Below, in pieces: positions 2,786 to 28,702 of a DNA stretch of 29,022 nt (the stretch's first letter is position 1; each line of letters opens with the position of its first letter). The notes under the pieces were generated by a model, which was not told where the DNA came from, did not search any database, and saw nothing but the letters and a program-made list of their open reading frames with translations. Origin of the DNA: an uncultured Candidatus Saccharibacteria bacterium (GTDB lineage: Bacteria > Patescibacteriota > Minisyncoccia > Portnoybacterales > UBA2143). The DNA lies in NCBI GenBank assembly GCA_964346955.1, contig CAYFWT010000013.1:1-29022 (forward strand), in the 5' to 3' direction. A program made the translations under genes and the position numbers.

Positions 2786-3196
2786 ATGAAAAACTATCAG
2801 AAAATTTTAACCAGTTGTTTAATAATATTTAGTTGTATTTGGGCAGCCAATGCTTGGGCAGCTATAGTTCCTTGCGGCACTGAAGAGAATCCAGAGCCTT
2901 GTGCTCTTTGTCATCTCTGGCAGCTGGGCAGCAATATCATCAACTTTATTGTTTGGCAATTGTCCATTCCTGTGGCCGCTCTTTTATTTATTTCCGCCGG
3001 TGTTATTTTTATGACTTCTGGCGGCAGTGAAGAAAGAGTCGGCTTAGGGAAAAAGATTTTTCTTAATACAGCTATTGGTTTGATTATTGTTTTCTGCTCT
3101 TGGCTTTTAATTGATACTATATTTAAGACTCTGGCCAGCGGAGAATTTAGCGCTGCTTGGAACAAATTTCCTTCTTGTTTAGCACCACCGACTTAA
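2786..3196 (+). CDS. Small secreted two-helix membrane protein, VirB2/TrbC-like (T4SS-pilin-like) topology, paralog 1
   Basis: Signal peptide (MKNYQKILTSCLIIFSCIWAANAWA), then helix1 (IPVAALLFISAGVIFMTSGGSEE), a short polar loop and helix2 (KKIFLNTAIGLIIVFCSWLL). The architecture and the GG[S/D] loop are shared with the two downstream paralogs. Confidence 0.45.
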   Translation: MKNYQKILTSCLIIFSCIWAANAWAAIVPCGTEENPEPCALCHLWQLGSNIINFIVWQLSIPVAALLFISAGVIFMTSGGSEERVGLGKKIFLNTAIGLIIVFCSWLLIDTIFKTLASGEFSAAWNKFPSCLAPPT

Positions 3197-3207
3197 AAAT
3201 TATATCT

Positions 3208-3573
3208 ATGCTTAGAAATAATTTTAAAAATTTACCCTTTTTATTTTTTATTTTAACATTTTTTATAATTGGTCTGCCGCTGATTGGGATTAAAGCTCAA
3301 GCCCCTCCGCCTACGGAAATAGAGAATCCGCTGGGGACAGAAGATTTTGAGGAATTAGTCAGTCGTATTGCCACTTGGGTTTTTAATATTGGCATTGCCT
3401 TAGCTACGGTGGTCTTTCTTTGGAGCGGTTTTCAGTTTTTGATTTCAGGTGGCAGTGATCCAAAGGTAGCCAAGGCTAAAAAAACAATGTTTTGGGCAGT
3501 GGTTGGTTTAATTATTTGTTTATGTGGGGCAGGTATAACCACCTTGATTAAAGAATTTTTAGGAGCTAGTTAA
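3208..3573 (+). CDS. Small secreted two-helix membrane protein, VirB2/TrbC-like, paralog 2
   Basis: The track ORF 3157-3573 overlaps the previous gene, so the internal ATG at 3208 (MLRNNFKNLPFLFFILTFFIIGLPLIGIKAQA, a signal peptide) is preferred. It continues as ...WVFNIGIALATVVFLWSGFQFLISGGSDPKVAKAKKTMFWAVVGLIICL. Confidence 0.45.
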   Translation: MLRNNFKNLPFLFFILTFFIIGLPLIGIKAQAPPPTEIENPLGTEDFEELVSRIATWVFNIGIALATVVFLWSGFQFLISGGSDPKVAKAKKTMFWAVVGLIICLCGAGITTLIKEFLGAS

Positions 3574-3612
3574 ATAACTTAAAATTAAAAGAAAGGGGGT
3601 GAATTAAATTAA

Positions 3613-3948
3613 ATGAAAAGAAAAATTATTGCCGGTCTATCCTTGATGTCTTTATGGGGGTTTGCTTTACCGGTTTTTGCTCAGGTAGAGCCGCCGCCTG
3701 AACCAGTAACTTCTATAGAAGACATAATCAACTTAATAGATACAGCGGCAACTTGGCTTTTCACTATCATTTTAGCTGTTGCCGTAGTTATGTTACTGTA
3801 TGCTGCTTTCAGATGGATGACAGCCGGGGGAGATGAAACAGCCATAGCCTCATCCAGAAAACTGTTAATTTATGCTTTAGTTGGTATCGGTATTGCCTTT
3901 TTGGCTAAGGGTTTAGTTTCAGTAATCAGGCAGTTAGTGGGAGCTTAG
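3613..3948 (+). CDS. Small secreted two-helix membrane protein, VirB2/TrbC-like, paralog 3
   Basis: A strong SD (AAAGGGGGTGA) precedes the ATG. Signal peptide MKRKIIAGLSLMSLWGFALPVFAQ. Then WLFTIILAVAVVMLLYAAFRWMTAGGDE, a loop, and RKLLIYALVGIGIAFLAKGL. Confidence 0.5.
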   Translation: MKRKIIAGLSLMSLWGFALPVFAQVEPPPEPVTSIEDIINLIDTAATWLFTIILAVAVVMLLYAAFRWMTAGGDETAIASSRKLLIYALVGIGIAFLAKGLVSVIRQLVGA

Positions 3949-4060: not shown

Positions 4061-5113
4061 TTACCTCCTTCGTTTCCTCCAGGTCTTAATTTGGACCTGG
4101 ACCATCAGCTCTTTCCCTGCGTCATTTTTCAGTTCAATCACCCCGTCACCTACGGCTGACCCAGTTACACAAACTCGCTTCTTGATGAGAAAAGAAGGGA
4201 TCTTTTCCTTATTGATGAACCAGTATTTTCCTGGTGGGGAAGTGAGCTGAGTTAGTCTTATTACCTCGCCTTTCTGGTACCGTAATTGTCGGCCCTTGGC
4301 ATCCTTGCCGACTATCTCCTCTCCGATGGGCAGTTTGAAAATACCAATTAGCTGCCGAACTTTCTTAGGTCGAACTTCCTTAGCTTGGGCTTCAGGCCTA
4401 GACCACAATTTTTTCCAGTTTATCCGCTTTTCCGGTAGCACCGCATATATCTTTTGAATGGTTGCTTTCAACTTGTCTGTTCTTTTCAGCTCGGCCTTCG
4501 AAAGGATTCTCTTCTTGCTCTCCTTGGCGAGCATATTTAGTTCCCTGAGGAAAGGTCTGGCCTGATGGTCTTTGGCGAGCCTCTCGATATTTGCTATAGC
4601 CAGTTCAACTTTCGAGTTCATTAATCTAGAGAGCGCTGCCCTATCCAGGTTAGCGGCAAATTCTCCCCAGAAGAGTCCAAGGCAGATCATTGTTCCGGCA
4701 ATGGCAAATAAATAGACAAACTGCATTTCCAAGAGTATTCGAGAAAGCCGCTTCTCAAAAGGCTTCTTTTTATTGGTGATGCCACATAAGACGAAGACGG
4801 AAAGCTCCAAGGCTAAGAGAGGTTTCCAGTAGACTTTCCAAATTTCTCCCGAGGTCTCCCAAAACAGAAGGGCAAACCCTATATGGAGAAATCCCCAGGC
4901 CACCGGATTGGCAAAGGCAGGCTTGAAATAGTTCCACCAAAAAGGACCTGGACCTAAGTAAATCATTCCTCCTATTAAGATGATAGTCAGCAGGATAAGG
5001 CCTACTAAGATAAGAAGGCCCTTGAAAAGCCCTACTCCTACCATTGAGGAGAAAATGGCTATTACCACAAAGAGTATTCCTAAGACAGTCAATCCGATTC
5101 TATATCTACTCAT
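4061..5113 (-). CDS. Polytopic membrane protein with a charged coiled region and a small C-terminal domain; partner of the SPFH gene (possibly NfeD-like)
   Basis: 350 aa with about 5 N-terminal TM helices, a K/R/E-rich middle part and a C-terminal segment (VCVTGSAVGDGVIELKNDAGKELMVQVQI). Its start overlaps the upstream SPFH gene by 4 bp (ATGA), which implies an operon. Confidence 0.5.
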   Translation of the reverse strand: MSRYRIGLTVLGILFVVIAIFSSMVGVGLFKGLLILVGLILLTIILIGGMIYLGPGPFWWNYFKPAFANPVAWGFLHIGFALLFWETSGEIWKVYWKPLLALELSVFVLCGITNKKKPFEKRLSRILLEMQFVYLFAIAGTMICLGLFWGEFAANLDRAALSRLMNSKVELAIANIERLAKDHQARPFLRELNMLAKESKKRILSKAELKRTDKLKATIQKIYAVLPEKRINWKKLWSRPEAQAKEVRPKKVRQLIGIFKLPIGEEIVGKDAKGRQLRYQKGEVIRLTQLTSPPGKYWFINKEKIPSFLIKKRVCVTGSAVGDGVIELKNDAGKELMVQVQIKTWRKRRR

Positions 5114-8079: not shown

Positions 8080-8100
8080 ATTTTTATGATAGCATGACTA

Positions 8101-8134
8101 ACTAGATATAAATAGGACACCATCTCTGGTGCCC
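8101..8134 (-). terminator. Probable rho-independent terminator after hsp20
   Basis: On the minus-strand RNA: GGGCACCA-GAGA-TGGTGTCC followed by UAUUUAUAU. It lies 26 nt downstream of the hsp20 stop. Confidence 0.45.
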
Positions 8135-8159
8135 TTATTCCATTTACTGTTGGTTGATT

Positions 8160-8690
8160 CTATTCCGTTTTTATTTCTATTTTTTTGGTCTTTACTTTTT
8201 CCGCCTTGGGTAATCTGATAGTTAAAATGCCATTTTTCATTTTGGCTAGGGCTTTGTCGGCCTCAACATCAACTGGCAAAATAACCGAACGGGAAAAAGC
8301 TCCCCAATAACATTCTTGATAATAGTAGTCCTCTTCTTTAACTTCTTCGTCTTTTTCTCGAGAGCCTTTTATGGTAATCATGTCGTTGGTCATAGTAATA
8401 TCAATATCTTCCGGCTTAACTCCGGCAATAGTCGATTTGATGACTATTTCATTAGGAGTTTGATAGACATCAATAGTTAGCTGTCCCTCAGATTCAGCTA
8501 GCCAATCCTCTGGTTCTTTTTTCCGAGGCGGCGAAACTTTCTTTTCTTTTTCCACAGGAATATCTTTTTTAATAGATTTGGTTTTCCCAACTTTTATTGG
8601 TTTTCTAATTTTTTCTTCTCGCTCGAGAGGTCTATCTTCTGCCCAACTAGCTCCAGTTAATCTTTCGAAAAATGATGGTTTTTTTGCCAT
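8160..8690 (-). CDS. Hsp20 / alpha-crystallin family small heat-shock protein
   Basis: Alpha-crystallin domain (LTIDVYQTPNEIVIKSTIAGVKPEDIDITMTNDMITIKGSREKD ... GAFSRSVILPVDVEADKALAKMKNGILTIRLPK). The ATG start is at 8690 (MAKKPSFFERL). The track ORF start at 8708 is an in-frame TTG. Confidence 0.9.
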   Translation of the reverse strand: MAKKPSFFERLTGASWAEDRPLEREEKIRKPIKVGKTKSIKKDIPVEKEKKVSPPRKKEPEDWLAESEGQLTIDVYQTPNEIVIKSTIAGVKPEDIDITMTNDMITIKGSREKDEEVKEEDYYYQECYWGAFSRSVILPVDVEADKALAKMKNGILTIRLPKAEKVKTKKIEIKTE

Positions 8691-8782
8691 AAATATTTCT
8701 CTAATCAATCTCGAATTCTGGCTCGAATAACCGCCAAGTTATTCGAGATTATTAATGGTTAAATTAGAGATTGATTTGTGAT
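8691..8782 (-). promoter_or_regulatory. Highly structured hsp20 leader with nested, mutually exclusive perfect helices (candidate RNA thermometer or attenuator)
   Basis: Minus-strand RNA: AAUCAAUCUC ... [AAUCUCGAAUAAC UUGGCG GUUAUUCGAG] CC AGA AUUCGAGAUU GAUUAG AGAAAUAUUU AUG. Three copies of the CUCGAAU / AUUCGAG element allow two alternative 10 bp helices. An outer 10 bp helix (AAUCAAUCUC / GAGAUUGAUU) ends 12 nt before the AUG. Confidence 0.4.
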
Positions 8783-9538
8783 TTATATTTTACAAATAGC
8801 TTGTTGCTTTTTTAATCTCCGGAAGCAATAAGAAACTAGAAGAGCCATTATCACCAAAAGAAAAGCAATAACAGAAAGAAAAGTTATTCTTTGATAAAGG
8901 GCTTCTTGACTAAGAGCCGTGATGACAAGGTAATTATAGCAGCTATGGAAAATAATAGCAATAGTTAAACCAATTAAGATTAATTTTTTTCTCTGCTTAG
9001 CATAAAGCAAGCCTAAGGCGAGCCAATAACCAACAACGCCAGAGGCAAGGGCATGGACTAAAGTTGCCCCAAGAAAACGAAGGCCAATAGTGCTAAGAGC
9101 TTCTCCTAAAGGGGGCAAGGGGAATTTTAAAAGAATGAGTAAATTTTCCACTGCGGCAAAACCTAGGCCAGCTATAATACAGTATAGCATAGCATCAATT
9201 GGCTCGTCAAATTCAGGATTTCTAAGAACTCTAAATTTGACTACCGAATATTTTAAATATTCTTCGACTAAAGCAGGAATAAGAGTACTGGCTAAGATAA
9301 TTTTAAAGAAGTGGTCTCTAGTCATTTGGGATAAAAGAGATAAAGGGTTAAGGCTAGGATTAATAAACCAGATTAATATTATTTCTAAAATAATAGCTAA
9401 AGGAGCGAGAAGCATTCCCCAGATAAAGATTCTTAAAACCATCGAATTAGGTTCTGGATGAGCATCTTTTCTTAGATAAAAAGATAGCCAGATTATACTG
9501 GGCACAAAGCCGAGAATTATGTAAAAGGGATAGGACAT
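8783..9538 (-). CDS. PrsW-like intramembrane metalloprotease (CPBP/CAAX protease superfamily)
   Basis: Polytopic membrane protein with PrsW-type motifs: YLRKDAHPEP near the N-terminus, ALVEEYLKYS (EExxK), GFAAVENL (FxxxEN) and FHSCYNY. Confidence 0.6.
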   Translation of the reverse strand: MSYPFYIILGFVPSIIWLSFYLRKDAHPEPNSMVLRIFIWGMLLAPLAIILEIILIWFINPSLNPLSLLSQMTRDHFFKIILASTLIPALVEEYLKYSVVKFRVLRNPEFDEPIDAMLYCIIAGLGFAAVENLLILLKFPLPPLGEALSTIGLRFLGATLVHALASGVVGYWLALGLLYAKQRKKLILIGLTIAIIFHSCYNYLVITALSQEALYQRITFLSVIAFLLVIMALLVSYCFRRLKKQQAICKI

Positions 9539-9556
9539 AGAGCAAGAGATAGGAGA

Positions 9557-9724
9557 GAGTTCAGGGTAATCATTTCTCGAAGACGCAGCGGCCGTGACCT
9601 AATTTGTCTTCTTCTTATAATTTAAGCCGCTGCTCCGAGATGACAAAAGAGTTCTTTATTAGTACATCAAGCTAGCTGTTATCTTTTGTCATCTAGGCTT
9701 CTCGAAATGGCCACCCTGAACTCT
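9557..9724. repeat. 170 bp structured element with about 26 bp imperfect terminal inverted repeats and two internal hairpins (candidate ncRNA or MITE)
   Basis: Outer arms AGAGTTCAGGGTAATCATTTCTCGAAG (9557-9583) and CTTCTCGAAATGGCCACCCTGAACTCT (9698-9724). Inner hairpin 1: GCAGCGGC (9585-9592) / GCCGCTGC (9626-9633). Inner hairpin 2: GATGACAAAAG (9639-9649) / CTTTTGTCATC (9684-9694), perfect 11 bp. It lies between the valS stop (9741) and the prsW-like start (9538). Confidence 0.5.
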
Positions 9725-9740
9725 TTTCGACTCGGTTTCT

Positions 9741-20107: not shown

Positions 20108-21190
20108 ATGTTTTTATTTGGTAAGAAGCCGAAGAGTCATTTAGGTATTGATATTGGCGCTTCGGCAGTTAAATTAGTTGAATTGGAAAAAGAAGGAGGA
20201 AGGCACAAGTTGATAAATTATGGAGTTTTCTTCTTGAAAGAATATCTAAAGCAGAAGGAGAAACAGGGAAAACAGGAGATAGGAGAGCAGGATAAAAAAG
20301 AGACTTTGCGGATTCCCGATGAGGAGATGGCCGAGATAATAAAAAAGACTATTGGAGAGGCTAAAATTAGAACTCGGGAAGCTTATCTTTCCGTTCCTGT
20401 TTATTCTAGCTTTTTGACTCTGATTGAGCTCCCGGCCATGCCCGAAAAAGAGATTGCTGCCGCTCTTCCTTTTGAGGCTAAAAAATACGTCCCTGTACCT
20501 ATTTCAGAAGTAGTTTTGGATTGGAGTGTTGTTGGGTTGCCAGATAAGCAAGCTACTCTTCAGATTTTACTTATTGCTGTCCCTAAGGAAGTTATTAGTT
20601 ATTATAACAAAATAATTAAATTAGTTGGTTTAAATCTCCGCAGTCTAGAAGAAGAAACATTTAGTTTAACCCGATCTCTAGTGGGAAATGATAAGAGTGC
20701 TCTTCTTTTGATTGACGCCGGAGCCCGCTCTATTAATATCAGCATCATTGACGAAGGCTATATTCGAGTTGCTCATAATTTGGAAATGGGCGGGACTAAA
20801 ATAATTAAAGCCGTTTCTCAGCAGATGGGTCTTAGTCCAGAAAAAGAAGAGGAATTAAAAAAGACTCTTTCTTCTGGTCAAATGATTGATAAGCAAGGTC
20901 CTGAACTAAAAGGAATAATCCATTCTATTTTAGGTAATATCACTATCGAAGTTAGAAAGATTATTGATTCGTATCAAGGTAAATATAATCGAAAAATTGA
21001 AAAATGTATTTTAATCGGTGGAGCTGTTCAAGCATTTGGCTTTGTTGAATATTTTATTAATAAGTTAAATATGGAGGTTTCTTTGGGCAATCCTTTTGCT
21101 CGAGTAATCTATCCTTCTCTACTTGAGCCGGCTCTAAAAGAATTAGGTTCTTCTTTAGCAGTAGCGGTTGGTTTGGCAATGAGAGAGTAA
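20108..21190 (+). CDS. pilM: Type IV pilus assembly protein PilM (actin-like ATPase fold)
   Basis: The N-terminus HLGIDIGASAVKLVEL is typical of PilM/FtsA-like proteins. An in-frame purine-rich low-complexity insertion follows (KQKEKQGKQEIGEQDKKETL). Confidence 0.8.
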   Translation: MFLFGKKPKSHLGIDIGASAVKLVELEKEGGRHKLINYGVFFLKEYLKQKEKQGKQEIGEQDKKETLRIPDEEMAEIIKKTIGEAKIRTREAYLSVPVYSSFLTLIELPAMPEKEIAAALPFEAKKYVPVPISEVVLDWSVVGLPDKQATLQILLIAVPKEVISYYNKIIKLVGLNLRSLEEETFSLTRSLVGNDKSALLLIDAGARSINISIIDEGYIRVAHNLEMGGTKIIKAVSQQMGLSPEKEEELKKTLSSGQMIDKQGPELKGIIHSILGNITIEVRKIIDSYQGKYNRKIEKCILIGGAVQAFGFVEYFINKLNMEVSLGNPFARVIYPSLLEPALKELGSSLAVAVGLAMRE

Positions 21191-21198
21191 ATAGATAG

Positions 21199-21313
21199 AT
21201 TACAAATCCCAAATCACAAATCACAATCCTTCGACTCGGTCGTCTAAAGCGACCTCACTCAGGAAATAATTTTATAGTGAGCTTGTCGAACTATTGTTTG
21301 TAATTTGGAATTT
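21199..21313. repeat. Low-complexity inverted repeat (ATTACAAATCCCAAATCACAAATCACAA ... TTGTTTGTAATTTGGAATT) flanking a 67 bp core
   Basis: The arms lie at 21199-21226 and 21294-21313. The core contains the hairpin GGTCG-TCTAAA-GCGACC (21238-21255) and the 25 bp repeat copy 2 (21271-21295). Confidence 0.6.
21271..21295 (-). repeat. 25 bp exact repeat, inverted copy 2 (TTTATAGTGAGCTTGTCGAACTATT)
   Basis: Perfect reverse complement of 14075-14099. It lies 30 bp upstream of the pilN GTG start. Confidence 0.85.
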
Positions 21314-21324
21314 TATTTATTGAC

Positions 21325-21912
21325 GTGGATATCAAATTGATGCCCGAAAAATATAAGAGGAAGGAGGAGCTGGTTCCTGAATCAAAATTGTCACCAGCTA
21401 GTCTTTCTAAAAGGGTAGTGGCCAAGGCTAATCTTTGGCTGGCTTTATCTCTTATTTTGTTAATCATAGCTGTCTTGGCTACCTTTGGGTTCTGGGGCTA
21501 TAAGGATAATTTGATTAAAGAGAAAGGAAATTTAGAAGAAAAGATAAAGGAATTAGATAACCAAAGAGACCTAGATTTAGAAGCTAATTTTATAGAATTA
21601 AAAAAGGGTATTGAAAGTTTTAAGAATATTTTAAAGACTCACATTTATCCTTCTTATCTTTTTAAGATGCTAGAAGAATTAACTCTTCCTCAAGTTCGGT
21701 TTATTGAGTTTGGGGCTGATTTGTCTCAAGCCAAGATAACTTTAACAACCGAGACAGTTAATTATAACATTCTTGCTAAACAAATAGTTGCTTTTGAACA
21801 AGATTCCCGCATCGAGAAAGTAGAGCTTTCGGAAGTTAGTTTAGGGGATACTGGTGGGGTTGGTTCCGAATTAGAAATAGAATTAAATCCTGATTTTTTA
21901 CGTCCAGAATAA
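21325..21912 (+). CDS. pilN: Type IV pilus assembly protein PilN
   Basis: The N-terminal IKLMPE matches the INLLP PilM-binding motif. A single TM helix (LWLALSLILLIIAVLATFGFWGY) is followed by a coiled-coil periplasmic domain. The start is a GTG at 21325 or the ATG at 21340. Confidence 0.6.
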   Translation: MDIKLMPEKYKRKEELVPESKLSPASLSKRVVAKANLWLALSLILLIIAVLATFGFWGYKDNLIKEKGNLEEKIKELDNQRDLDLEANFIELKKGIESFKNILKTHIYPSYLFKMLEELTLPQVRFIEFGADLSQAKITLTTETVNYNILAKQIVAFEQDSRIEKVELSEVSLGDTGGVGSELEIELNPDFLRPE

Positions 21913-21934
21913 AAATAAGAGATAAAAATAAAAT

Positions 21935-22543
21935 ATGAATAAAAAAATCATTGTCAGTGTAGTTAGTTTGCTGATTAGCCTAGCTTTAATATCTATTTTT
22001 GTTTTCCCTCTTTGGTCTTCGGTGAGAACTTTGCGGCAAGAAGTAACTCAAAAGAGGCTAGACTTAGCCAAGGTTGAGGATCTTTTAAATAAAACTCAGC
22101 AACTTAAACAAGAACTTCAGGGAGTAGAGGAAGAATCTCAAAGAATTTTTTTCGCTTTGCCAAAGGAAAAAGATATCCCTAATTTATTAATTCAATTTGA
22201 GGCCTTAGCTTTAGCCAATGGCTTGTTACTTGAGTCAATAAGGTTTGGCCAACTAGACGGAGCAAAAGGAACTGCTAGCCAAGGAACATCGGAGCAATTT
22301 TCTCAAGATTCGCTCCAACCCCAAAAAAAGTTGGCCCTTCGCAGTTTGCCCGTAGATTTAATCATTAGTGGTTCTTATAGCGCTTTTAAAAAATATTTAG
22401 CTGATTTAGAAAAGGATGTTCGTTCTATGGATATTCATTCCATTAGTCTTGCTACTCCCAAAGAAGACGAAGAGGCTAGTATTTTAGCGCCTTCGTTGGG
22501 CATTTTTGAATTTAATTTAGGATTAGTCGTTTACTACCAATAA
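21935..22543 (+). CDS. pilO: Type IV pilus assembly protein PilO-like
   Basis: N-terminal TM helix (IIVSVVSLLISLALISIFVF), then a coiled-coil and a C-terminal domain. Its position after pilN fits PilO. Confidence 0.5.
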   Translation: MNKKIIVSVVSLLISLALISIFVFPLWSSVRTLRQEVTQKRLDLAKVEDLLNKTQQLKQELQGVEEESQRIFFALPKEKDIPNLLIQFEALALANGLLLESIRFGQLDGAKGTASQGTSEQFSQDSLQPQKKLALRSLPVDLIISGSYSAFKKYLADLEKDVRSMDIHSISLATPKEDEEASILAPSLGIFEFNLGLVVYYQ

Positions 22544-22547
22544 TTAG

Positions 22548-22640
22548 GAAATCACAAACCACAAACCACAAATCACAAAACACAAACAGTTTGTAATTTG
22601 GAAATTGGAATTTGTTTGTAATTTGGTGCTTGTGATTTGG
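22548..22640. repeat. About 93 bp imperfect palindrome built from (CAAAYCACAAA)n / (TTTGTAATTTGG)n low-complexity units
   Basis: The left arm GAAATCACAAACCACAAACCACAAATCACAAAACACAAAC is nearly the reverse complement of the right arm GTTTGTAATTTGGAAATTGGAATTTGTTTGTAATTTGGTGCTTGTGATTTGG. Confidence 0.6.
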
Positions 22641-22720
22641 AATTTTATTTTACCGTGGCCTTTAGGCTCCGCTCTAAAGAATCCATACTTTTTCCTCAAG
22701 AAAGGAAACAGCAGAAGCTA

Positions 22721-22984
22721 ATGATAGCTTTGGCAGGGTTAATTTTAACAACTTTTGCTATTTTGTATTTTGGGTTTTTTCGCTCACCCGCGCCTCCGGG
22801 CCCGTCTGATGGCGAACCAGGCCCCTCTGAAAGGCCTACGGTTAGGCCGGAAGAAGTGATTAAAAAAATCGAGTTTGATATTAGTTTCTTAAAAGAGCCT
22901 GACTTCCGAGCTTTAAAAATTTACGGAGAATGGCCTATTGAGATAGAAGAGAAAGGCCGAAAGAACCCATTTTCACCATATTAA
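22721..22984 (+). CDS. Small membrane-anchored protein with a Pro-rich linker (possible PilP-like accessory protein)
   Basis: The ATG at 22721 is preferred because the track ORF upstream part overlaps the repeat. TM helix IALAGLILTTFAILYFGFF, linker SPAPPGPSDGEPGPSERPTVRPEE, and an approximately 45 aa C-terminal domain. Confidence 0.4.
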   Translation: MIALAGLILTTFAILYFGFFRSPAPPGPSDGEPGPSERPTVRPEEVIKKIEFDISFLKEPDFRALKIYGEWPIEIEEKGRKNPFSPY

Positions 22985-23059
22985 AATTAGTAAGCAACAA
23001 GCAATATTTAATTTATTAATTAATCTGTTTTTGTTTAATATTCTTTGTTTGTTGTCACG

Positions 23060-24688
23060 ATGGCTAATCAAAATGACAATCTGAAAGAAGTAGAGACAGT
23101 TAAAGCTAAAGCTAGGGCGTTGAAAGTTCCTTTTATGGATTTAACCGGCAGAGAAGTTCCGGTTGAAGTTTTGAAAGAAATTTCTGAAGAAGCAGCTGCT
23201 TTTTATAAATTTATTCCCTTATCCAGACATGAGAATATTCTTGAAGTGGGAATGGTTAATCCTGATAACCTTAAAGCAAAGGAGGCTTTAAGGTTTATTA
23301 CTCGCCGCAGTGGATTGGAAGCAAAGATATTTCTTGTTACCCCGACTGACTTTAAAAACATCTTGAAGCAATATCGAACTCTTCGAATCGAAGTGCAAAA
23401 GGCACTCAAAGAGCTGGAGAAAGAATTGAAGCCAAAGAAAGGAAAGGTGCCGGTTGCGGAGAGAGCCAAGGAGCTAGCCGAGAAAATTGTCGCTGAAGCA
23501 CCGATAACTAAAATAGTGGCAGTTATTTTAAGGCATGCTACCGAAGGTCGAGCTTCTGATATCCATATCGAAGCGATTGAAGAGAAAGTAAAAGTTCGTT
23601 TTAGAGTTGACGGAGTCCTTTATACCAGTCTTTTCTTGCCCAAAGAAGTTCATTCGGCGATTATTTCCCGGATTAAAATACTTTCTAATTTAAAGATTGA
23701 TGAGACGAGGATACCACAAGATGGCCGATTTAATACTTTTATTGCTGGAAAGAAGATTGATTTTCGGGTCTCTACTTTGCCAACGGCCGGCGGAGAAAAG
23801 GCAGCTTTAAGGGTGCTGGACCCAACGATTGGCTTAAGAAGTTTCGCTGAGCTAGGTCTCCAAGGATACAATCTCGAACTTTTAGAGACGTCTATTCAAC
23901 AGCCATTTGGCATGATTCTGATTACTGGGCCAACTGGTTCTGGTAAAACCACTACTCTTTATGCTATTTTGAATAAATTGAATCAAGAGGGGGTTAATAT
24001 TATCAGTCTAGAGGACCCGGTGGAGTATTACATTGAGGGGATTAACCAATCTCAAATTAGGCCAGAGATAGGTTATAACTTCGCTTCTGGCTTGCGGCAT
24101 ATTCTTAGGCAAGATCCTGATATTATTATGGTTGGTGAGATTAGAGATGAGGAAACAGCCGGCTTAGCTATTCACGCTGCCTTGACTGGTCACATTCTTC
24201 TTTCTACTTTGCATACTAATAATGCTATTGGAGTTATCCCTCGTTTAGTCGATATGGGCATCGGTGCATTCCTCTTGCCCACTTCCCTAAATCTAGCTAT
24301 TGCTCAACGTTTGACCAGACGACTCTGTGAGCATTGTAAAAAAGAAGTAACTGCTCCTTCTCAAGCGAGCGAAATAATTGAGGAAGAGTTAGCTGAATTA
24401 AGCCCGGCCCGAAAGAAAGAATTCCCTTGGCGAAAACCATTTAAAGTTTATCGAGCTACCGGATGTAAATTTTGTGGAGGAAAAGGAACTAAAGGTCGAA
24501 TTGCTCTTTTTGAGATGATCACGATGACCCCTCAATTAGAGCTAATTATTAACGAAGGCCCAACCGAGGCAAAGATAAAGGAGGAAGCTCAGCGCCAAGG
24601 GATGATTACTATGAAACAGGATGGCGCCTCAAAAGTTCTTCAGGGCCTTATCTCTTTCGAGGAAATGCTTAAGGTAGTTGAGGAGTAA
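23060..24688 (+). CDS. pilB: Type IV pilus assembly ATPase PilB (GspE family)
   Basis: Walker A GPTGSGKTT. Tetracysteine motif CEHCKK ... GCKFCGG. GspE N-terminal domain. ATG at 23060 (MANQNDN). Confidence 0.9.
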   Translation: MANQNDNLKEVETVKAKARALKVPFMDLTGREVPVEVLKEISEEAAAFYKFIPLSRHENILEVGMVNPDNLKAKEALRFITRRSGLEAKIFLVTPTDFKNILKQYRTLRIEVQKALKELEKELKPKKGKVPVAERAKELAEKIVAEAPITKIVAVILRHATEGRASDIHIEAIEEKVKVRFRVDGVLYTSLFLPKEVHSAIISRIKILSNLKIDETRIPQDGRFNTFIAGKKIDFRVSTLPTAGGEKAALRVLDPTIGLRSFAELGLQGYNLELLETSIQQPFGMILITGPTGSGKTTTLYAILNKLNQEGVNIISLEDPVEYYIEGINQSQIRPEIGYNFASGLRHILRQDPDIIMVGEIRDEETAGLAIHAALTGHILLSTLHTNNAIGVIPRLVDMGIGAFLLPTSLNLAIAQRLTRRLCEHCKKEVTAPSQASEIIEEELAELSPARKKEFPWRKPFKVYRATGCKFCGGKGTKGRIALFEMITMTPQLELIINEGPTEAKIKEEAQRQGMITMKQDGASKVLQGLISFEEMLKVVEE

Positions 24689-24706
24689 TGAAAAGCGAGC
24701 AACGGA

Positions 24707-25159
24707 ATGAATATTCGACAGTCAGCAATAAAAAAGAGCGGCGGTTTTACCTTAATTGAACTTTTGGTGGTGGTCTTTATAGTTGCCCTCTTAGCTGTGC
24801 TAATTTTGATTAATATTAGCGCCATCAGAACTAAGAGTAGAGATTCTCGTCGGGTGGCTGATATTAAATCTATTCAAGAGGGATTGGCTATGTATCATAA
24901 TAATCATCAGGAATATCCAGACTCTGGCGGAGCTCCCATTGAGATTAATGGTAGCAGCGATGCTCTTTCCCAGGCCTTAATTAACGAAGATGTAATGCGA
25001 GGGGTGCCCACCGATCCTCTGAATAATACTGTAGGAGGAGTGCCCTATAAATATTTTTATGAGTCACTTGATAGTGAGAGAGACTATCAGTTAGAATATT
25101 ATTTAGAGACAGATTCAATTCTCGGCAAATCTCAGGGGCTAAATATAGCCACTCCATAA
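24707..25159 (+). CDS. Type IV pilin (prepilin with class III signal peptide), no Cys pair
   Basis: Leader MNIRQSAIKKSGG, then [21 protein letters not shown] with Glu at position +5. The conserved ARxKSRDSRRVADIKSIQEGLAMY block is present. Confidence 0.8.
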   Translation: MNIRQSAIKKSGGFTLIELLVVVFIVALLAVLILINISAIRTKSRDSRRVADIKSIQEGLAMYHNNHQEYPDSGGAPIEINGSSDALSQALINEDVMRGVPTDPLNNTVGGVPYKYFYESLDSERDYQLEYYLETDSILGKSQGLNIATP

Positions 25160-25173
25160 TAATAAATAATAAG

Positions 25174-25563
25174 ATGAAAAAGATATTAATTATTGAAGAT
25201 GATCCCTTTCTCAATGAAGTCTACGCCGCTAAGTTTAGCCAGAGTGGTTTTCAGACAGAAGTGGCTCTTGATGGCAAAAAAGGTATGGAGAAAATCAAAG
25301 CCGATAAGCCTGATTTGATTATTTTAGACATTGTTTTGCCTAAAATGGATGGTTTTGAATTATTAAAGAAAGTTAAAGAAGACTCAAAATTAAAAGAGAT
25401 TCCAATTGTTCTTTTAACTAATCTTGGTCAAAAAAATGAAGTAGAGAAGGGCTTAGCCTTGGGGGCTGATGACTATATTATTAAGGCTCATTTTACACCA
25501 ACAGCTATTGTTGCTAAAGTGAAAGAGATATTAAATCAAAAAAGAGCGAATAATAAACAATGA
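25174..25563 (+). CDS. Single-domain CheY-like response regulator (PilH/PilG-like)
   Basis: Receiver domain with acidic pocket EDD, phospho-acceptor D in LIILDIVLP, and T/K residues. Its stop overlaps the pilT start as ATGA. Confidence 0.85.
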   Translation: MKKILIIEDDPFLNEVYAAKFSQSGFQTEVALDGKKGMEKIKADKPDLIILDIVLPKMDGFELLKKVKEDSKLKEIPIVLLTNLGQKNEVEKGLALGADDYIIKAHFTPTAIVAKVKEILNQKRANNKQ

Positions 25564-26636
25564 ATACTGGACAATATAAAAAACAATTTGAAGAGATTCT
25601 AGACCTGGCTATAGAAAGGGGGGCGACTGATGTTCATCTTTCGGCTGGTCGGCCGCCAATTATTCGAATTAGTAGCCAATTGACTCCTTTAGCTAAAAGA
25701 CCAGTCTTAACTCCTCAAGATACCCAAGAATTAGGTTTTGCTCTTTTATCCGAGGAGCGAAAAGAACAATTCCTTAAACAAAAGGACATTGATTTATCTT
25801 TCACCTATAAAGATAAAGCTCGTTTCAGAGTAAATGTTTACCAGCAGGTGGGACGAATTAGTGTAGCTTTGCGTTTAATTCCAACTAAAATTAGAACTAT
25901 TGAAGAATTGCATTTGCCAGCTGTTTGCCACCAATTTGCCAGAGCGCCTCAAGGATTTTTTTTAGTGGTTGGTCCTTCTGGTCAGGGAAAGTCTACTGCT
26001 TTGGCCGCTTTAATTGATGAAATAAATCATACTCGTTATGACCATGTTATTACTATTGAGGACCCCATAGAATATCTGTTCGTTCAAGATAAATGTATTA
26101 TCGATCAAAGAGAAATAGGCGAGGATGTTTTGACCTTCCATCGAGGTTTGCGAGAGGTTTTCCGTCAGGACCCAGATGTGATTATGATTGGCGAGATGCG
26201 CGACCCGGAGACTATTAGTAGCGCGGTGACGGCGGCCGAGACTGGTCATTTAGTTTTAACTACCCTTCACACTAATACGGCCGCTCAGACTATTGATCGA
26301 ATTATCGATACTTTCCCTCCTCACCAGCAGAATCAGATTCGGATGCAGTTAGCAGCCACTATTTTAGGGATTCTTTCTCGTCGGTTAATCCCTTGCTTAA
26401 AAGGAGAGGTGATTAATGCAGTGGAGTTGATGATGGCCAATTCAGCTATTAGAAATTTAATTCGGGAAGGAAAAACCCACCAGATAGATATGATTATTGA
26501 AACCAGTTCAGGGGAAGGAATGATTTCTTTAAATCGTTCTTTAGCTAATTTAGTTACTCAAAAGTTAATTTCTTTAGAGAATGCCCAACGCCATTCGACT
26601 GATATTTCAGAACTGAGAATGTTACTTAAGAAATAA
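25560..26636 (+). CDS. pilT: Twitching motility ATPase PilT
   Basis: Walker A GPSGQGKST. PilT-type motifs (ITIEDPIEY, AAETGHLVLTTLHTN). Confidence 0.9.
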   Translation: MNTGQYKKQFEEILDLAIERGATDVHLSAGRPPIIRISSQLTPLAKRPVLTPQDTQELGFALLSEERKEQFLKQKDIDLSFTYKDKARFRVNVYQQVGRISVALRLIPTKIRTIEELHLPAVCHQFARAPQGFFLVVGPSGQGKSTALAALIDEINHTRYDHVITIEDPIEYLFVQDKCIIDQREIGEDVLTFHRGLREVFRQDPDVIMIGEMRDPETISSAVTAAETGHLVLTTLHTNTAAQTIDRIIDTFPPHQQNQIRMQLAATILGILSRRLIPCLKGEVINAVELMMANSAIRNLIREGKTHQIDMIIETSSGEGMISLNRSLANLVTQKLISLENAQRHSTDISELRMLLKK

Positions 26637-26653
26637 AGGGCTTGGCCTAAAAA

Positions 26654-26777
26654 TGACAGCAAGGCTGTCATCCTGAGGGCGAAGCCCGAAGGATCCCGTT
26701 CTATAACCACGAGATCCTTCGCTAATGCTCAGGATGACAATTTTGTTGCCAAATCAAAGATTTGGACAAAATTGTCA
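26654..26777 (+). promoter_or_regulatory. GC-rich spacer with three overlapping, mutually exclusive hairpins, ending at the pilC start
   Basis: H1: TGACAGC-AAG-GCTGTCA (26654-26670). H2: GTCATCCTGAG ... CGAAGGATC / GATCCTTCG ... CTCAGGATGAC (26667-26738), with an internal GGC-GAA-GCC. H3: TGACAATTTTGT-TGCCAAATC-AAA-GATTTGGACAAAATTGTCA (26735-26777). H1/H2 and H2/H3 share bases. Confidence 0.45.
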
Positions 26778-26783
26778 ATTGGC

Positions 26784-27989
26784 ATGCAATATAGTTATTT
26801 AGCCCGAACTCGTAAAGGAGAGATTCAAACTGGGACTGTCGAAGCTCCTAATCAATCAATGGCTCTTCAGATTCTGCAAGGTCGTAATTTGATAGTGATT
26901 AAGCTGGCTGCCATTGAGAAGGCGTCTCTTTTAAGTAGAAAGATTAAAATCTTTGAGCGGGTCAAACGCAAAGAGCTTTTTATCTTTTTTCGGCAGCTAG
27001 CTACTTTAGTAGAAGCCGACGTACCCTTAGTCCAGTCTTTAAGGTCTCTCGCCCAACAGGTGGAGGGTGGTTATTTTGGGGGGATTATTTGGGCAGTAGC
27101 TGATGATGTAGATGGGGGGGCACTTTTTTCTAAGGCCCTAGCTAGGTATCCTAAAATATTTTCTGAGTTTTGTGTAAATTTAATTAAATCAGGAGAGGTT
27201 TCTGGTCAACTTCAGGAAAGTCTAACTTATTTAGCCGACCACCTAGAGAAAGAGTATTCTATTATTTCCAGAGTCCGCCGGGCGATGATGTATCCAGCTT
27301 TTATTTTTATCACTTTTGCTATTGTTGGTATTTTAGTCATGGTCATGGTCATGCCTGGTTTGGCCTCTATATTAGAAGAGGCGGGTCAGGAATTGCCTTT
27401 GCCGACCCGAGTTCTTATCACGGTTAGCGAATTTATTAGAAGTCGAGGCTGGCTTCTTCTCATTGCCTTAATTATTTTAAGCATAGTCTTTTGGCGATAT
27501 TTAAACACAGAGATGGGTAGAGGCCAGTGGGACAGACTTAAATTAAAGTTACCTATTTTGGGAAATATTTTTCAAAAAACTTGTTTAGCTCGTTTAGCTG
27601 ATAGTTTGAATGCCTTAATTAAGGGCGGTGTTTCGATTATTCAAAGTTTAACTGTCGCCGGTCGGGTTATTGGCAATACTGTTTATCGAGATATTATTTT
27701 CCAAACCAGAGATGAAGTAAAAGTAGGTAAAAGCATTAGCTCTTCTTTAGAAAGATATGAGGAATTCCCACCTTTATTTTGCCAGATGATTAAAACCGGG
27801 GAACGGACAGGTAAATTAGATACTATTTTAGAAAAGTTGAGTATTTTTTATAATAGAGAAGTAGAGAATATCGTTGAGAATCTAAGTCAGTTAATCGAGC
27901 CTATCCTGATTGTTTGTTTAGGGATAGCGGTAAGTATTTTAGTTTTCGCTGTTTATATGCCTATTTATAATTTGGCTGGGAGTCTCTAG
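26784..27989 (+). CDS. pilC: Type IV pilus inner-membrane platform protein PilC (GspF family)
   Basis: Two T2SS-F domains and three TM segments. The ATG at 26784 (MQYSYLARTRKGE) is preferred over the track's TTG at 26772. Confidence 0.85.
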   Translation: MQYSYLARTRKGEIQTGTVEAPNQSMALQILQGRNLIVIKLAAIEKASLLSRKIKIFERVKRKELFIFFRQLATLVEADVPLVQSLRSLAQQVEGGYFGGIIWAVADDVDGGALFSKALARYPKIFSEFCVNLIKSGEVSGQLQESLTYLADHLEKEYSIISRVRRAMMYPAFIFITFAIVGILVMVMVMPGLASILEEAGQELPLPTRVLITVSEFIRSRGWLLLIALIILSIVFWRYLNTEMGRGQWDRLKLKLPILGNIFQKTCLARLADSLNALIKGGVSIIQSLTVAGRVIGNTVYRDIIFQTRDEVKVGKSISSSLERYEEFPPLFCQMIKTGERTGKLDTILEKLSIFYNREVENIVENLSQLIEPILIVCLGIAVSILVFAVYMPIYNLAGSL

Positions 27990-28102
27990 TTATTAAGACT
28001 CCAGAATCAGGGATAGTCTCTTTTCCTAAAAAGGACTTTCTCTGGCAAAGGTCGAAAGTTAAAAAAATAAAATCTATCCACCAATGAAAGGAGGTGAAAA
28101 AG

Positions 28103-28552
28103 ATGCTAGAGTTTTTTAGCCGAAAAAGAGGAGAGAAAGGTTTTACTTTAATTGAGCTTTTGGTAGTTATTGCCATTATTGGAATCTTAGCCACTATTGT
28201 TTTGGTTTCCTTAAATACCGCCAGACAGAAAGCTCGTGATACCCGGCGAATTAGTGACATGAGACAAATCGCTTTGGCTTTAGAGATGTATTTTGATGAC
28301 AATCCTACAACCGGTTATCCGAACGCTCCCTGGGCGACCATGGAAGGTGCCATCGAAGGTGGCGGTTATATGACTTCTGTCCCTGCTGACCCAGGAACAA
28401 ATACTTACGAATATGGCGTGTCTGGCGATAACATGGATTATGTTTTGAATGCCACTTTAGAAGATTCTAATCACACTGCCTTAAATGATGATGTTGATGG
28501 GACTGTTTATGGGGTAGGCTGTGCTGACCCAGAATACTGTATCGAGCCTTAA
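28103..28552 (+). CDS. pilA: Type IV major pilin (PilA-like) with a C-terminal disulfide loop
   Basis: SD AAAGGAGGTG sits 6 nt before the ATG at 28103 (the track start 28094 is an in-frame GTG). Leader [13 protein letters not shown], then [24 protein letters not shown] with E+5. Conserved [24 protein letters not shown] block. C-terminal [10 protein letters not shown]. Confidence 0.8.
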
Positions 28553-28566
28553 TTTAGTTTAACTGG

Positions 28567-28702
28567 ACAGCCTGATAGCCAAGAACCCAGCTCTTTCTAA
28601 GAATTTGTTAGTTTTTCAATTGCTGTTAAATCGGTGCTATTTTCTTGTCTCAATAGAACTAACAAGCTTTTAGAAAGGGCTGGGTTAAGGTTGTCAGGCT
28701 GT
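28567..28702 (+). terminator. Long imperfect inverted repeat (about 47 nt arms, 42 nt loop) after pilA, followed by a U-rich tract
   Basis: The arm ACAGCCTGATAGCCAAGAACCCAGCTCTTTCTAAGAATTTGTTAGTT pairs with the arm AACTAACAAGCTTTTAGAAAGGGCTGGGTTAAGGTTGTCAGGCTGT (perfect segments of 9, 6, 8 and 9 bp), then TTTGTATATTGT. Confidence 0.4.

Follow-up and report, generated by a model that had tools for sequence, protein, structure and literature searches.

What does the RNA between a prsW gene and a small heat-shock protein gene do in a Patescibacterium, and does it sense temperature? The question is raised by a 29,022-nt stretch of contig CAYFWT010000013.1 (the window), whose source organism is a Patescibacterium. 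Here the gene for a PrsW-family intramembrane protease (prsW, positions 8783..9538 on the minus strand; Pfam PF13367, 1.6e-31) is the upstream cistron and the gene for a small heat-shock protein (hsp20, 8160..8690 on the minus strand; Pfam PF00011, 4.4e-22) the downstream one, and the 92 nt between them (8691..8782, minus strand) form a structured element, the family A hairpin (fold z = -5.8; covariance model, 94 bits). Read as RNA, this spacer is AUCACAAAUCAAUCUCUAAUUUAACCAUUAAUAAUCUCGAAUAACUUGGCGGUUAUUCGAGCCAGAAUUCGAGAUUGAUUAGAGAAAUAUUU, followed by the AUG of hsp20. A preliminary description of the locus had proposed a candidate RNA thermometer built on alternative perfect helices. We favor another answer, to which we assign a probability of roughly 40%: the spacer would be an intercistronic RNA stem-loop of the dispersed-repeat type that keeps the prsW stop and the hsp20 start juxtaposed and partly masks the ribosome landing site. 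On our best reading, the element is a member of a hairpin class typical of the lineage, long, AU rich, and made of tandem short units, which occupies co-directional spacers and 5' leaders in Parcubacteria, and family A behaves like a dispersed palindromic repeat. The structure, conservation, geometry, masking energy, and family relations given below are computed results, with all thermodynamics obtained in silico.

The 131-nt fold has an energy of -30.6 kcal/mol (z = -5.77) and was equaled by none of 200 shuffles. As described before, the spacer holds three copies of CUCGAAU/AUUCGAG, and their coordinates were confirmed: CTCGAAT lies at 8710-8716 and 8722-8728 on the plus strand and at 8741-8747 on the minus strand, all three within 38 nt, while the window as a whole has 8 copies against 3.4 expected, a count reached in 1 of 100 shuffles. 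The repeat unit is an 8-mer present five times, twice inverted (UCUCUAAU and UCUCGAAU) and three times direct (AUUCGAGC, AUUCGAGA, and AUUAGAGA), with the direct copies spaced 12 and 11 nt. We also located both of the perfect 10-bp helices that had been reported (8722-8731/8738-8747 and 8707-8716/8741-8750) and the outer 10-bp helix, AAUCAAUCUC (8776-8767) with GAGAUUGAUU (8712-8703), which ends 12 nt before the AUG. A fourth helix, UCUCUAAUU (8770-8762) with GAUUAGAGA (8706-8698), had not been described and stacks on the alternative helix.

These helices make up two conformers. Conformer A is nested, with a 16-pair outer helix containing one U.C mismatch, an internal loop, and an inner 11-bp hairpin. 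The 5' arm of its outer helix (8761..8776, minus strand) begins 6 nt past the prsW stop and runs through AAUCAAUCUC, the mismatched U (8766), and AAUUU (8765-8761); the 3' arm (8703..8718, minus strand) is GAAUU (8718-8714), C (8713), and GAGAUUGAUU; and the inner hairpin (8722..8747, minus strand) consists of CUCGAAUAACU, a UGGC loop, and GGUUAUUCGAG. Conformer B comprises two alternative helices and a 5-bp hairpin. In the first of its helices, AAUCUCGAAU (8741..8750, minus strand) pairs with AUUCGAGAUU (8716-8707), and in the second the 5' arm UCUCUAAUU (8762..8770, minus strand) pairs with the arm at 8706-8698, reaching -8 from the AUG. The two conformers are predicted to be isoenergetic in the window sequence, at -24.5 (A) versus -25.1 (B) kcal/mol at 37 °C and -38.1 versus -37.4 at 15 °C.

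Comparison with a relative separates the two folds. Contigs were identified for the three closest Hsp20 relatives, and one of these, L082 (Hsp20 84% identical), has the only homologous hsp20 leader found. The two leaders are identical at 78 of 90 positions (86.7%), against 70 of 123 (57%) at the four-fold sites of prsW and hsp20 (Fisher p = 2e-6), and 3' of hsp20 the spacers of the window and L082 cannot be aligned. This difference places the leader under purifying selection, so that the structured leader of the preliminary description holds up. Conformer A keeps every one of its 27 pairs in L082 (-24.8 kcal/mol; minimum-free-energy variant, -31.4), with one compensatory change (C-G to U-A), three wobble changes to G.U or U.G, and the U.C mismatch of the window repaired to U-A; the inner hairpin has one compensatory C-G to U-A and one C-G to U.G. 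With two sequences, the formal statistics of such pairing are weak, as the shuffle controls show. The G.U pairs of this fold would be functional only in the sense-strand RNA. Conformer B has one broken pair in each of its three helices in L082, among them a G.A mismatch that disrupts the alternative helix 8741..8750/8716-8707, and its energy there is -4.5 kcal/mol; the L082 changes C8713A and A8702U would destroy this conformer alone. The direction is clear all the same: the nested hairpin has been conserved and the bistability has not. The alternative helices described earlier are therefore real and predicted to be isoenergetic in the window, but the fold they build is broken in L082, and the comparison of leaders in relatives that had been called for found the nested fold kept and the alternative one lost. 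The isoenergetic alternative is most simply a by-product of arms made of repeated units.

The architecture extends well beyond this pair. Hsp20 has 7412 homologues at an E of ≤1e-10, of which the named ones are from Portnoybacteria and Parcubacteria, and prsW-hsp20 synteny is widespread in these bacteria. We fetched 80 genome loci encoding Hsp20 relatives; about 40 share the prsW-hsp20 order, recognized by the PrsW tail ...KKLKKQQ(A/S)ICKI*. At eight orthologous loci the spacer measures -28 to +33 nt and has no long hairpin, and at 31 loci (including the window and L081 to L083) it is at least 50 nt long, with 22 of the 31 folding at a z of ≤-3. From lineage to lineage the hairpins are unrelated in sequence; in each, the 5' side is a tandem array of short units and the 3' side carries the complements. 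One unit family is AAUGAACA/UGUUCNC (L006, L008, L017, L023, L029, and L081), another CUGAAAC/GUUUCAAG (L007, L012, L020, and L083), and a third ACAGAUA/UAUCUGU (L045), with GC-rich types elsewhere; L081, whose Hsp20 is 88% identical to that of the window, nevertheless has a leader of the first, GAACA-type family. The unit period in these other families is 7 to 8 nt, helix length in relatives is 20 to 40 bp, and RNAalifold finds four and two compensatory pairs in the two larger families (the AAUGAACA and CUGAAAC types, respectively). GAACA-family leaders contain three 5-bp helices, between which lie conserved 2x2 internal loops that set A against C at 7-nt intervals. Owing to these loops the antisense strand folds better than the sense strand in several members, which may reflect a deliberate weakening or a role of the antisense strand or of the DNA. 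What is shared is position: the first paired base falls within -2 to +8 of the prsW stop at 27 of 31 loci, and the last one 6 to 11 nt upstream of the AUG at 23 of 31. A blastn search of every leader against all loci found no second copy of any leader within its own ±3 kb. Where hsp20 stands in other contexts, as at Moranbacteria-type loci with their own TTGATT-N17-TATACT promoter, the leaders are unstructured (z near 0). Six such genes (L044, L049, L055, L058, L060, and L080) share an unstructured upstream region, 85 to 97% identical over ~65 nt, that contains TTGCCAAAA...TTAGAAT, a conserved promoter or leader unlike the hairpins.

Family A itself recurs before other genes. A metagenome scan with the pattern ATTGATTNGAGAAATN{0,2}TTATGGC gave seven matches, six of them by chance in unrelated genes, and only L090 (= L093/L094) was informative. 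This locus, with the gene order groES-groEL-zf-lemA-PDDEXK-htpX, carries three copies in 4 kb: before groES, before lemA, and split around a PDDEXK_3 open reading frame (ORF) before htpX. This 130-aa ORF (GxxExxY-type; L090 5984-6455 = L093 8553-9024) occupies the hairpin loop in the lemA-htpX interval, so that the 5' arm precedes and the 3' arm trails it. The five known copies align end to end with 77% column identity and are bounded by terminal inverted repeats. Their shared ends are (C)UAAUCAAUC and GAUUGAUUAG, with inner UCUCUAAU/AUUAGAGA units and a tail of AGAAAWWUUAUG, and the 3' block AAUU(A/C)GAGAUUGAUU(A/U)GAGAAA, together with its distance to the AUG, is conserved across the different genes. 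RNAalifold on the five members recovers conformer A, with three compensatory pairs and 90% of cells paired. A covariance model search of 612 kb of related sequence, including the rest of the window, found no further copy, leaving one in the 29-kb window. No flanking direct repeat indicative of a target-site duplication is evident in the five copies, and no transposase lies near them. At the groES-leader and zf-lemA positions, L095 and L097 (LemA 88 to 90% identical to that of L090) carry unrelated unit-built hairpins, and family A is for this reason read as patchy and repeat-like. The groES leaders of L090 (~2600-2750), L095 (~4700-4890), and L097 (~3535-3680) each have a conserved sigma70-like promoter, TTGAC(A/T)-N17-TA(G/A)ATT, then GTA(T/G)TATC and no CIRCE, and their hairpins, of different sequence families, end 6 to 10 nt before the AUG; L097 has an additional unit-built hairpin between groES and groEL.

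Hairpins of this kind are not confined to hsp20, and the element resembles one of many repeat-built spacer hairpins more than a dedicated heat sensor. In the same loci, the hsp20 leaders are no more structured than other co-directional spacers of 50 to 200 nt (median z, -3.6 versus -4.5; p = 0.33), and the leader hairpins show no difference in length, GC content, or U tail from those 3' of hsp20. Structure by itself is thus uninformative about heat shock. Within the window, unit-built hairpins lie between the methyltransferase and solute-binding protein genes (1339-1479) and, as family B, in the pilM/pilO operon (21191-21324 and 22544-22636, plus strand). Family B is made of ACAAAUC/CACAAAC heptads, with six CACAAAC copies in 22544-22636, and its hairpins share the 3' end UUUGGAAUUUUAUUU... 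directly before GTG start codons. The pilT-pilC spacer (26637-26771, plus strand) holds a GC-richer palindromic repeat, (U)GUCAUYCUGAR...GAAGRAUC, that is dispersed through different Patescibacteria genomes and spacers: it recurs in the hsp20 leaders of L011, L018, and L078 and at L013:1692 and L045:969. Nested near-perfect helices of ~50 bp in all (28565-28700, plus strand) follow a prepilin-type gene at 28094-28552, with -83.5 kcal/mol over the first 200 nt after that gene. The valS-prsW spacer, described below, is a further nonstress spacer with a hairpin of this sort.

The geometry of the prsW-hsp20 spacer depends on both gene ends. The start of hsp20 is fixed at the ATG at 8690 because the N terminus, M-x-KKPSFFE(K/R)LTG, is conserved in ~80 homologous loci. 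An in-frame TTG at 8708 was rejected as the start: the longer N terminus lacks conservation, and in L082 a 2-nt indel puts it out of frame. At the other end, the PrsW C-terminal tail ...RRLKKQQAICKI* is conserved in ~40 relatives with synonymous variation in the DNA. Across the lineage this tail (8783-8830; ~40 related loci) is (F/Y)(R/K)KLKKQQ(A/S)ICKI*, basic and cysteine containing, with conservation at the protein level. The helix starts 6 nt past the stop and ends 12 nt before the AUG, which is the geometry of translational coupling, with the consequence for translation being a prediction. The hairpin also carries a measurable cost in the models. At 37 °C, opening the region from -15 to +12 takes a median of 8.7 kcal/mol in hairpin-bearing prsW-hsp20 leaders, against 5.1 in the short-spacer orthologues (p = 4e-4) and 4.9 for hsp20 in other contexts (p = 1e-5), a rise of ~3.7 kcal/mol, whereas the start codon proper (-3 to +12) is hardly affected (3.4 versus 2.6 to 2.8). 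The value for hsp20 of the window, 9.0 at 37 °C, is among the five highest of 25 window genes. Its ribosome-binding region is weak, as had been noted, with no Shine-Dalgarno (SD) sequence, though this is not special, since an SD-like motif precedes only about one-quarter of the window genes.

From these data, we favor the following sequence of events. The two genes most likely form one transcription unit, since the orthologues without a hairpin overlap or nearly abut (4 to 21 nt apart), a common sign of co-translation. Where there is more sequence between the genes, it folds back on itself, which leaves stop and start at the base of a single helix. The hairpin would loop out ~75 nt of inserted sequence and so hold the prsW stop, 6 nt from the helix base, beside the hsp20 AUG, 12 nt from it. 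The 3' arm would cover about -13 to -28, where the landing site of an SD-less start has its upstream part, making ribosome loading costlier. Because of this cover, translation of hsp20 may require the helix base to be unwound, for which ribosomes that terminate at prsW are the most plausible agents (translational coupling); RNase III-type processing could contribute.

Several points weigh against this reading. Co-transcription and coupling are inferred from geometry, as is the effect on expression that would follow, and the stop/start geometry could be trivial, given that any palindrome in a very short spacer spans it. The groES leaders of L090, L095, and L097 carry like hairpins behind a sigma70-like promoter with no upstream ORF, which rules coupling out as the general role of these hairpins. 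Sense stability does not consistently exceed antisense stability across the 31 leaders, so that RNA-level selection is established for family A alone, with weak signs of it in two other families. Conservation also reaches unpaired parts, the 3' tail GAUUGAUUAGAGAAAU...AUG being near-identical before four different genes, which hints at sequence-specific recognition rather than mere structural tolerance. Finally, all five known family A copies precede proteostasis genes (hsp20 twice, groES, lemA, and htpX). This five-fold association would be unexpected for a random repeat and is not explained by this reading, with the sample being small and biased by ascertainment: L082 was found via hsp20 and L090 via a pattern ending in ATGGC.

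The helix might also serve as an RNase III-type processing or stability determinant, an account that is compatible with the intercistronic stem-loop and not exclusive of it, and to which we give a modest chance. A coaxial helix of ~27 bp would be cleaved or would block exonucleases, so that the prsW and hsp20 parts of a bicistronic mRNA would decay independently or the 5' end of the hsp20 message would be set. The spacer fold, with 16 bp, an internal loop, and 11 bp, reaches the two turns or more of interrupted double-stranded RNA expected of a substrate (the helices of the relatives measure 20 to 40 bp), and it stands between co-directional genes without a U tail. Correia elements offer a precedent, being co-transcribed and bound or cleaved by RNase III (PMC2649163), and the L090 copy with an ORF in its loop has arms on both sides of that ORF. 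Cleavage in our spacer is itself a prediction, however, and this account leaves the regular stop of the 3' arm 6 to 11 nt before the AUG unexplained.

The conserved tail and the proteostasis genes behind all five copies are what a cis element of a stress regulon would predict, in which family A is recognized sequence specifically by a trans-acting factor that co-regulates hsp20, groES-groEL, lemA, and htpX without CIRCE. Such a factor could be an RNA-binding protein, possibly the small heat-shock protein itself, or a DNA-binding regulator on the phased 8-mers. There is a precedent for the former in IbpA, a small heat-shock protein that binds its own 5' untranslated region (PMC10474464). The constancy of the 3' block and of its distance to the AUG across genes, the lack of a further copy in the other window spacers and the rest of the 612 kb, and the absence of a relevant CIRCE or HAIR match from the searched sequences all agree with this idea, as does the spacing of the direct 8-mers by 11 to 12 nt, about one turn of DNA. 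We nevertheless consider it unlikely. The sample is very small and biased, and local duplication could instead explain the three copies of L090, which are clustered within 4 kb; close relatives of L090, and L081, carry other hairpin families, so that a co-evolving factor would need a very fast change of specificity. A duplex-DNA operator in particular, suggested by the phasing, is weakened by the 7- to 8-nt periods of other families, which are not a helical repeat, and by A-to-G changes that preserve G.U pairs and favor RNA instead.

The opposite possibility, that the spacer is a neutral palindrome, selfish or generated by slippage (like a miniature inverted-repeat transposable element or a repetitive extragenic palindrome), and survives where insertions are tolerated, would account for the presence/absence polymorphism in orthologous spacers, for the unrelated families in close relatives, for the multicopy but patchy occurrence of family A and of the GTCATYCTGAR repeat, and for the equal structure of other 50- to 200-nt co-directional spacers. 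What speaks against neutrality is the sequence of the leader: it is far more conserved than neutral sites next to a neighboring spacer that has turned over fully, and every stem substitution preserves pairing. Insertion has left no target-site duplication that we could see, and no transposase is known. This explanation, too, strikes us as unlikely.

It can be asked next whether family A, and with it the unit-built leader hairpins of Parcubacteria in general, acts as an RNA-level stress or temperature gate of a proteostasis regulon in lineages devoid of CIRCE, with the bistable fold as the switching form. We judge this quite unlikely, and still less do we credit the spacer as an RNA thermometer or two-conformer thermoswitch on its own, which seems very unlikely. 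In the latter case, the nested fold and a hairpin over the AUG would limit initiation in the cool, and heat would refold the leader to conformer B, whose alternative helices would capture GAGA and free the start codon. The hairpin concerned is small (8667..8701, minus strand; 7+4 bp), pairing GAGAAAU (8701-8695) with AUUUUUC (8673-8667) and AUGG (8690-8687) with CCAU (8678-8675), and the conserved KKPSFFE is encoded in its 3' half; its predicted pair probability falls from 0.95 at 5 °C to 0.48 at 45 °C and 0.09 at 55 °C. Once 27 nt of coding sequence are included, conformer A and the AUG hairpin give way to B in the modeled ensemble, the midpoint of the shift lying at ~47 °C, after which B is predicted to persist to ~85 °C. 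The midpoint compares with the measured Tm of 46 °C for the hsp17 thermometer (PMC4477652). The isoenergetic conformers, a small heat-shock protein as the downstream gene, and unit-built hairpins before groES in three Parcubacteria contigs without CIRCE fit a thermometer as well.

Thermometers, however, trap the ribosome-binding site or the AUG in a structure that melts at 37 to 42 °C (PMC4166951). The large helices of our spacer pair with neither the AUG nor an SD sequence, the outer helix ending at -13, and the AUG is covered only by the small separate hairpin. Fold A of the window leader keeps a pair probability of at least 0.89 up to 40 °C. Between 5 and 50 °C, the window leader gains little in unpaired probability at -12 to +3 (0.34 to 0.45), and in seven leaders (the window and six relatives) the gain at -25 to -13 is at most ~0.05 between 10 and 55 °C. 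The other four family A members, L082 and the three copies in L090, have a flat AUG accessibility over 10 to 47 °C. As for the start region of hsp20, its opening energy declines with temperature no faster than in other window genes. Folding across temperatures, which the preliminary description had suggested, thus yields a predicted switch near 47 °C in the window leader, but a fold that is intact to 40 °C and a flat AUG accessibility in the relatives. Conformer B is lost in L082, and the same class of hairpin, equally strong, occupies pilus, transporter, and other nonstress spacers. An Rfam scan of 8100-9600 (E of ≤10) returned four chance-level matches (E of at least 0.12) and no thermometer family such as ROSE or fourU; the spacer sequence lacks both a ROSE U(U/C)GCU anti-SD with bulged G and four U's opposite AGGA. 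CIRCE (TTAGCACTC-N9-GAGTGCTAA) has no match at ≤4 mismatches in the window and all 98 loci, including the three groES leaders, so that the earlier statement that neither ROSE nor CIRCE matches was correct. A search of the same sequences for HAIR (CTTGAGT-N7-ACTCAAG) at ≤2 mismatches gave none in the window and a single match, with two mismatches, at L073 position 4840, ~1.8 kb from the hsp20 start of that locus. On these predictions a thermometer appears possible but unsupported. Its sole positive sign, the bistable fold, is unique to the window sequence, and the earlier claim is downgraded.

Hardly any weight attaches to an intrinsic terminator or attenuator of prsW, the terminator being what the preliminary description had named as the function that would overturn its proposal: a strong hairpin does stand directly after the stop codon, but its tail, AGAGAAAUAUUU, has no U tract (in relatives, the 8 nt that follow a leader hairpin include a median of 2 U), the consensus scan reports no terminator on the minus strand in the spacer yet finds a canonical one 3' of hsp20 at 8135-8114 (8114..8135, minus strand; GC-rich stem and U-rich tail), the 12 nt left before the hsp20 AUG are too few for a downstream promoter, and the ribosome terminating at a stop codon should disrupt a hairpin that begins a few nucleotides beyond it (PMC4824070).

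Other features of the neighborhood touch on how hsp20 is transcribed. A consensus scan reported no promoter within the spacer (8691-8782) and one promoter-like site, TTAAAA-N17-TAAAAT, in the 3' end of prsW (8787..8815, minus strand; 9 of 12 matches). If used, this unproven candidate would put the hsp20 transcript start at ~8780, just 5' of the hairpin. The DNA coding for the PrsW tail happens to resemble such a site, which is not kept in several relatives whose tail peptide is conserved. Upstream of prsW, the 202-nt valS-prsW spacer (9539-9740, minus strand; -69.6 kcal/mol, z = -4.3) forms one long-range helix around two hairpins, with TTCGAGA in both arms, and contains a promoter-like TTGTCA-N16-TAAATT. 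Farther off, three tandem small genes at 2786-3948 (plus strand) match the T4SS_pilin/TrbC family; they adjoin the solute-binding protein gene and lie apart from the type IV pilus operon (20108-28552).

Gene regulation in Patescibacteria is almost unstudied, and these bacteria have tiny genomes, few regulators, and long strings of co-directional genes. Among the papers listed by full-text literature searches, none dealt with thermometers or intergenic hairpins in them, and in the first search none of those listed mentioned Patescibacteria. Repeat-built hairpins seem to punctuate their operons, beginning at stop codons and ending a fixed distance before SD-less starts, and this would offer a handle on how expression is tuned inside operons. 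Should family A turn out to be linked with chaperone and protease genes, it could be considered a candidate substitute for control of the CIRCE type. The pattern, unit-built operon hairpins with one family common to hsp20, groES, lemA, and htpX, is worth following up in whole genomes. It also carries a caution: where such hairpins are common, a strong one with alternative pairings before hsp20 is in itself no evidence for a thermometer.

Set against known systems, the element is not a ROSE, fourU, or hsp17 thermometer, a CIRCE, or a canonical terminator, as defining features of each are missing. With the ROSE, fourU, and Synechocystis hsp17 thermometers it shares a structured leader before a small heat-shock protein gene, imperfect helices, and structure conserved over sequence. 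Those RNAs trap the SD and/or AUG and melt at ~37 to 46 °C (PMC4166951, PMC4477652), whereas our main helices end 12 nt before the AUG, in a leader with no SD, and have a far higher predicted stability. No opening is predicted in four of the five family A members. The lambda cIII and cspA mRNAs are two-conformer switch thermometers, and the window sequence, alone among its relatives, resembles them in having two exclusive, near-isoenergetic folds with a predicted temperature shift; unlike them, it loses the second conformer in its sole orthologous leader, and its start-site accessibility barely shifts. The groES leaders of L090, L095, and L097 recall the CIRCE/HrcA operator in placing an inverted repeat between the promoter and the start of a chaperone gene, but the element is much longer, has no similarity to the CIRCE sequence, and is not conserved between genera, and the G.U pairs here favor pairing at the level of RNA.

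Intercistronic hairpins serve translational coupling or differential mRNA stability in the rpmI-rplT, mal, and puf operons, and our spacer is like these in lying between co-directional cistrons, with the 5' arm near the terminating ribosome and the 3' arm over the landing site. It differs in belonging to a class that also occupies promoter-proximal leaders without an upstream ORF, and its function here is putative. Correia, REP, and ERIC repeats are likewise short (~75 to 100 nt), bounded by inverted repeats, intergenic, and presumably co-transcribed, and they are multicopy in some genomes, patchy between genomes, and able to influence neighboring genes (PMC2649163). The arms of our element, by contrast, are tandem 7- to 12-nt units, its 3' end abuts a start codon, no target-site duplication was detected, and the 29-kb window holds a single copy; unlike Correia elements, these hairpins turn over fast in sequence while keeping their architecture. 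Overall, the prsW-hsp20 spacer most resembles two known systems, the co-transcribed intergenic palindromic repeats exemplified by Correia elements (PMC2649163) and the intercistronic hairpins that govern coupling or stability.

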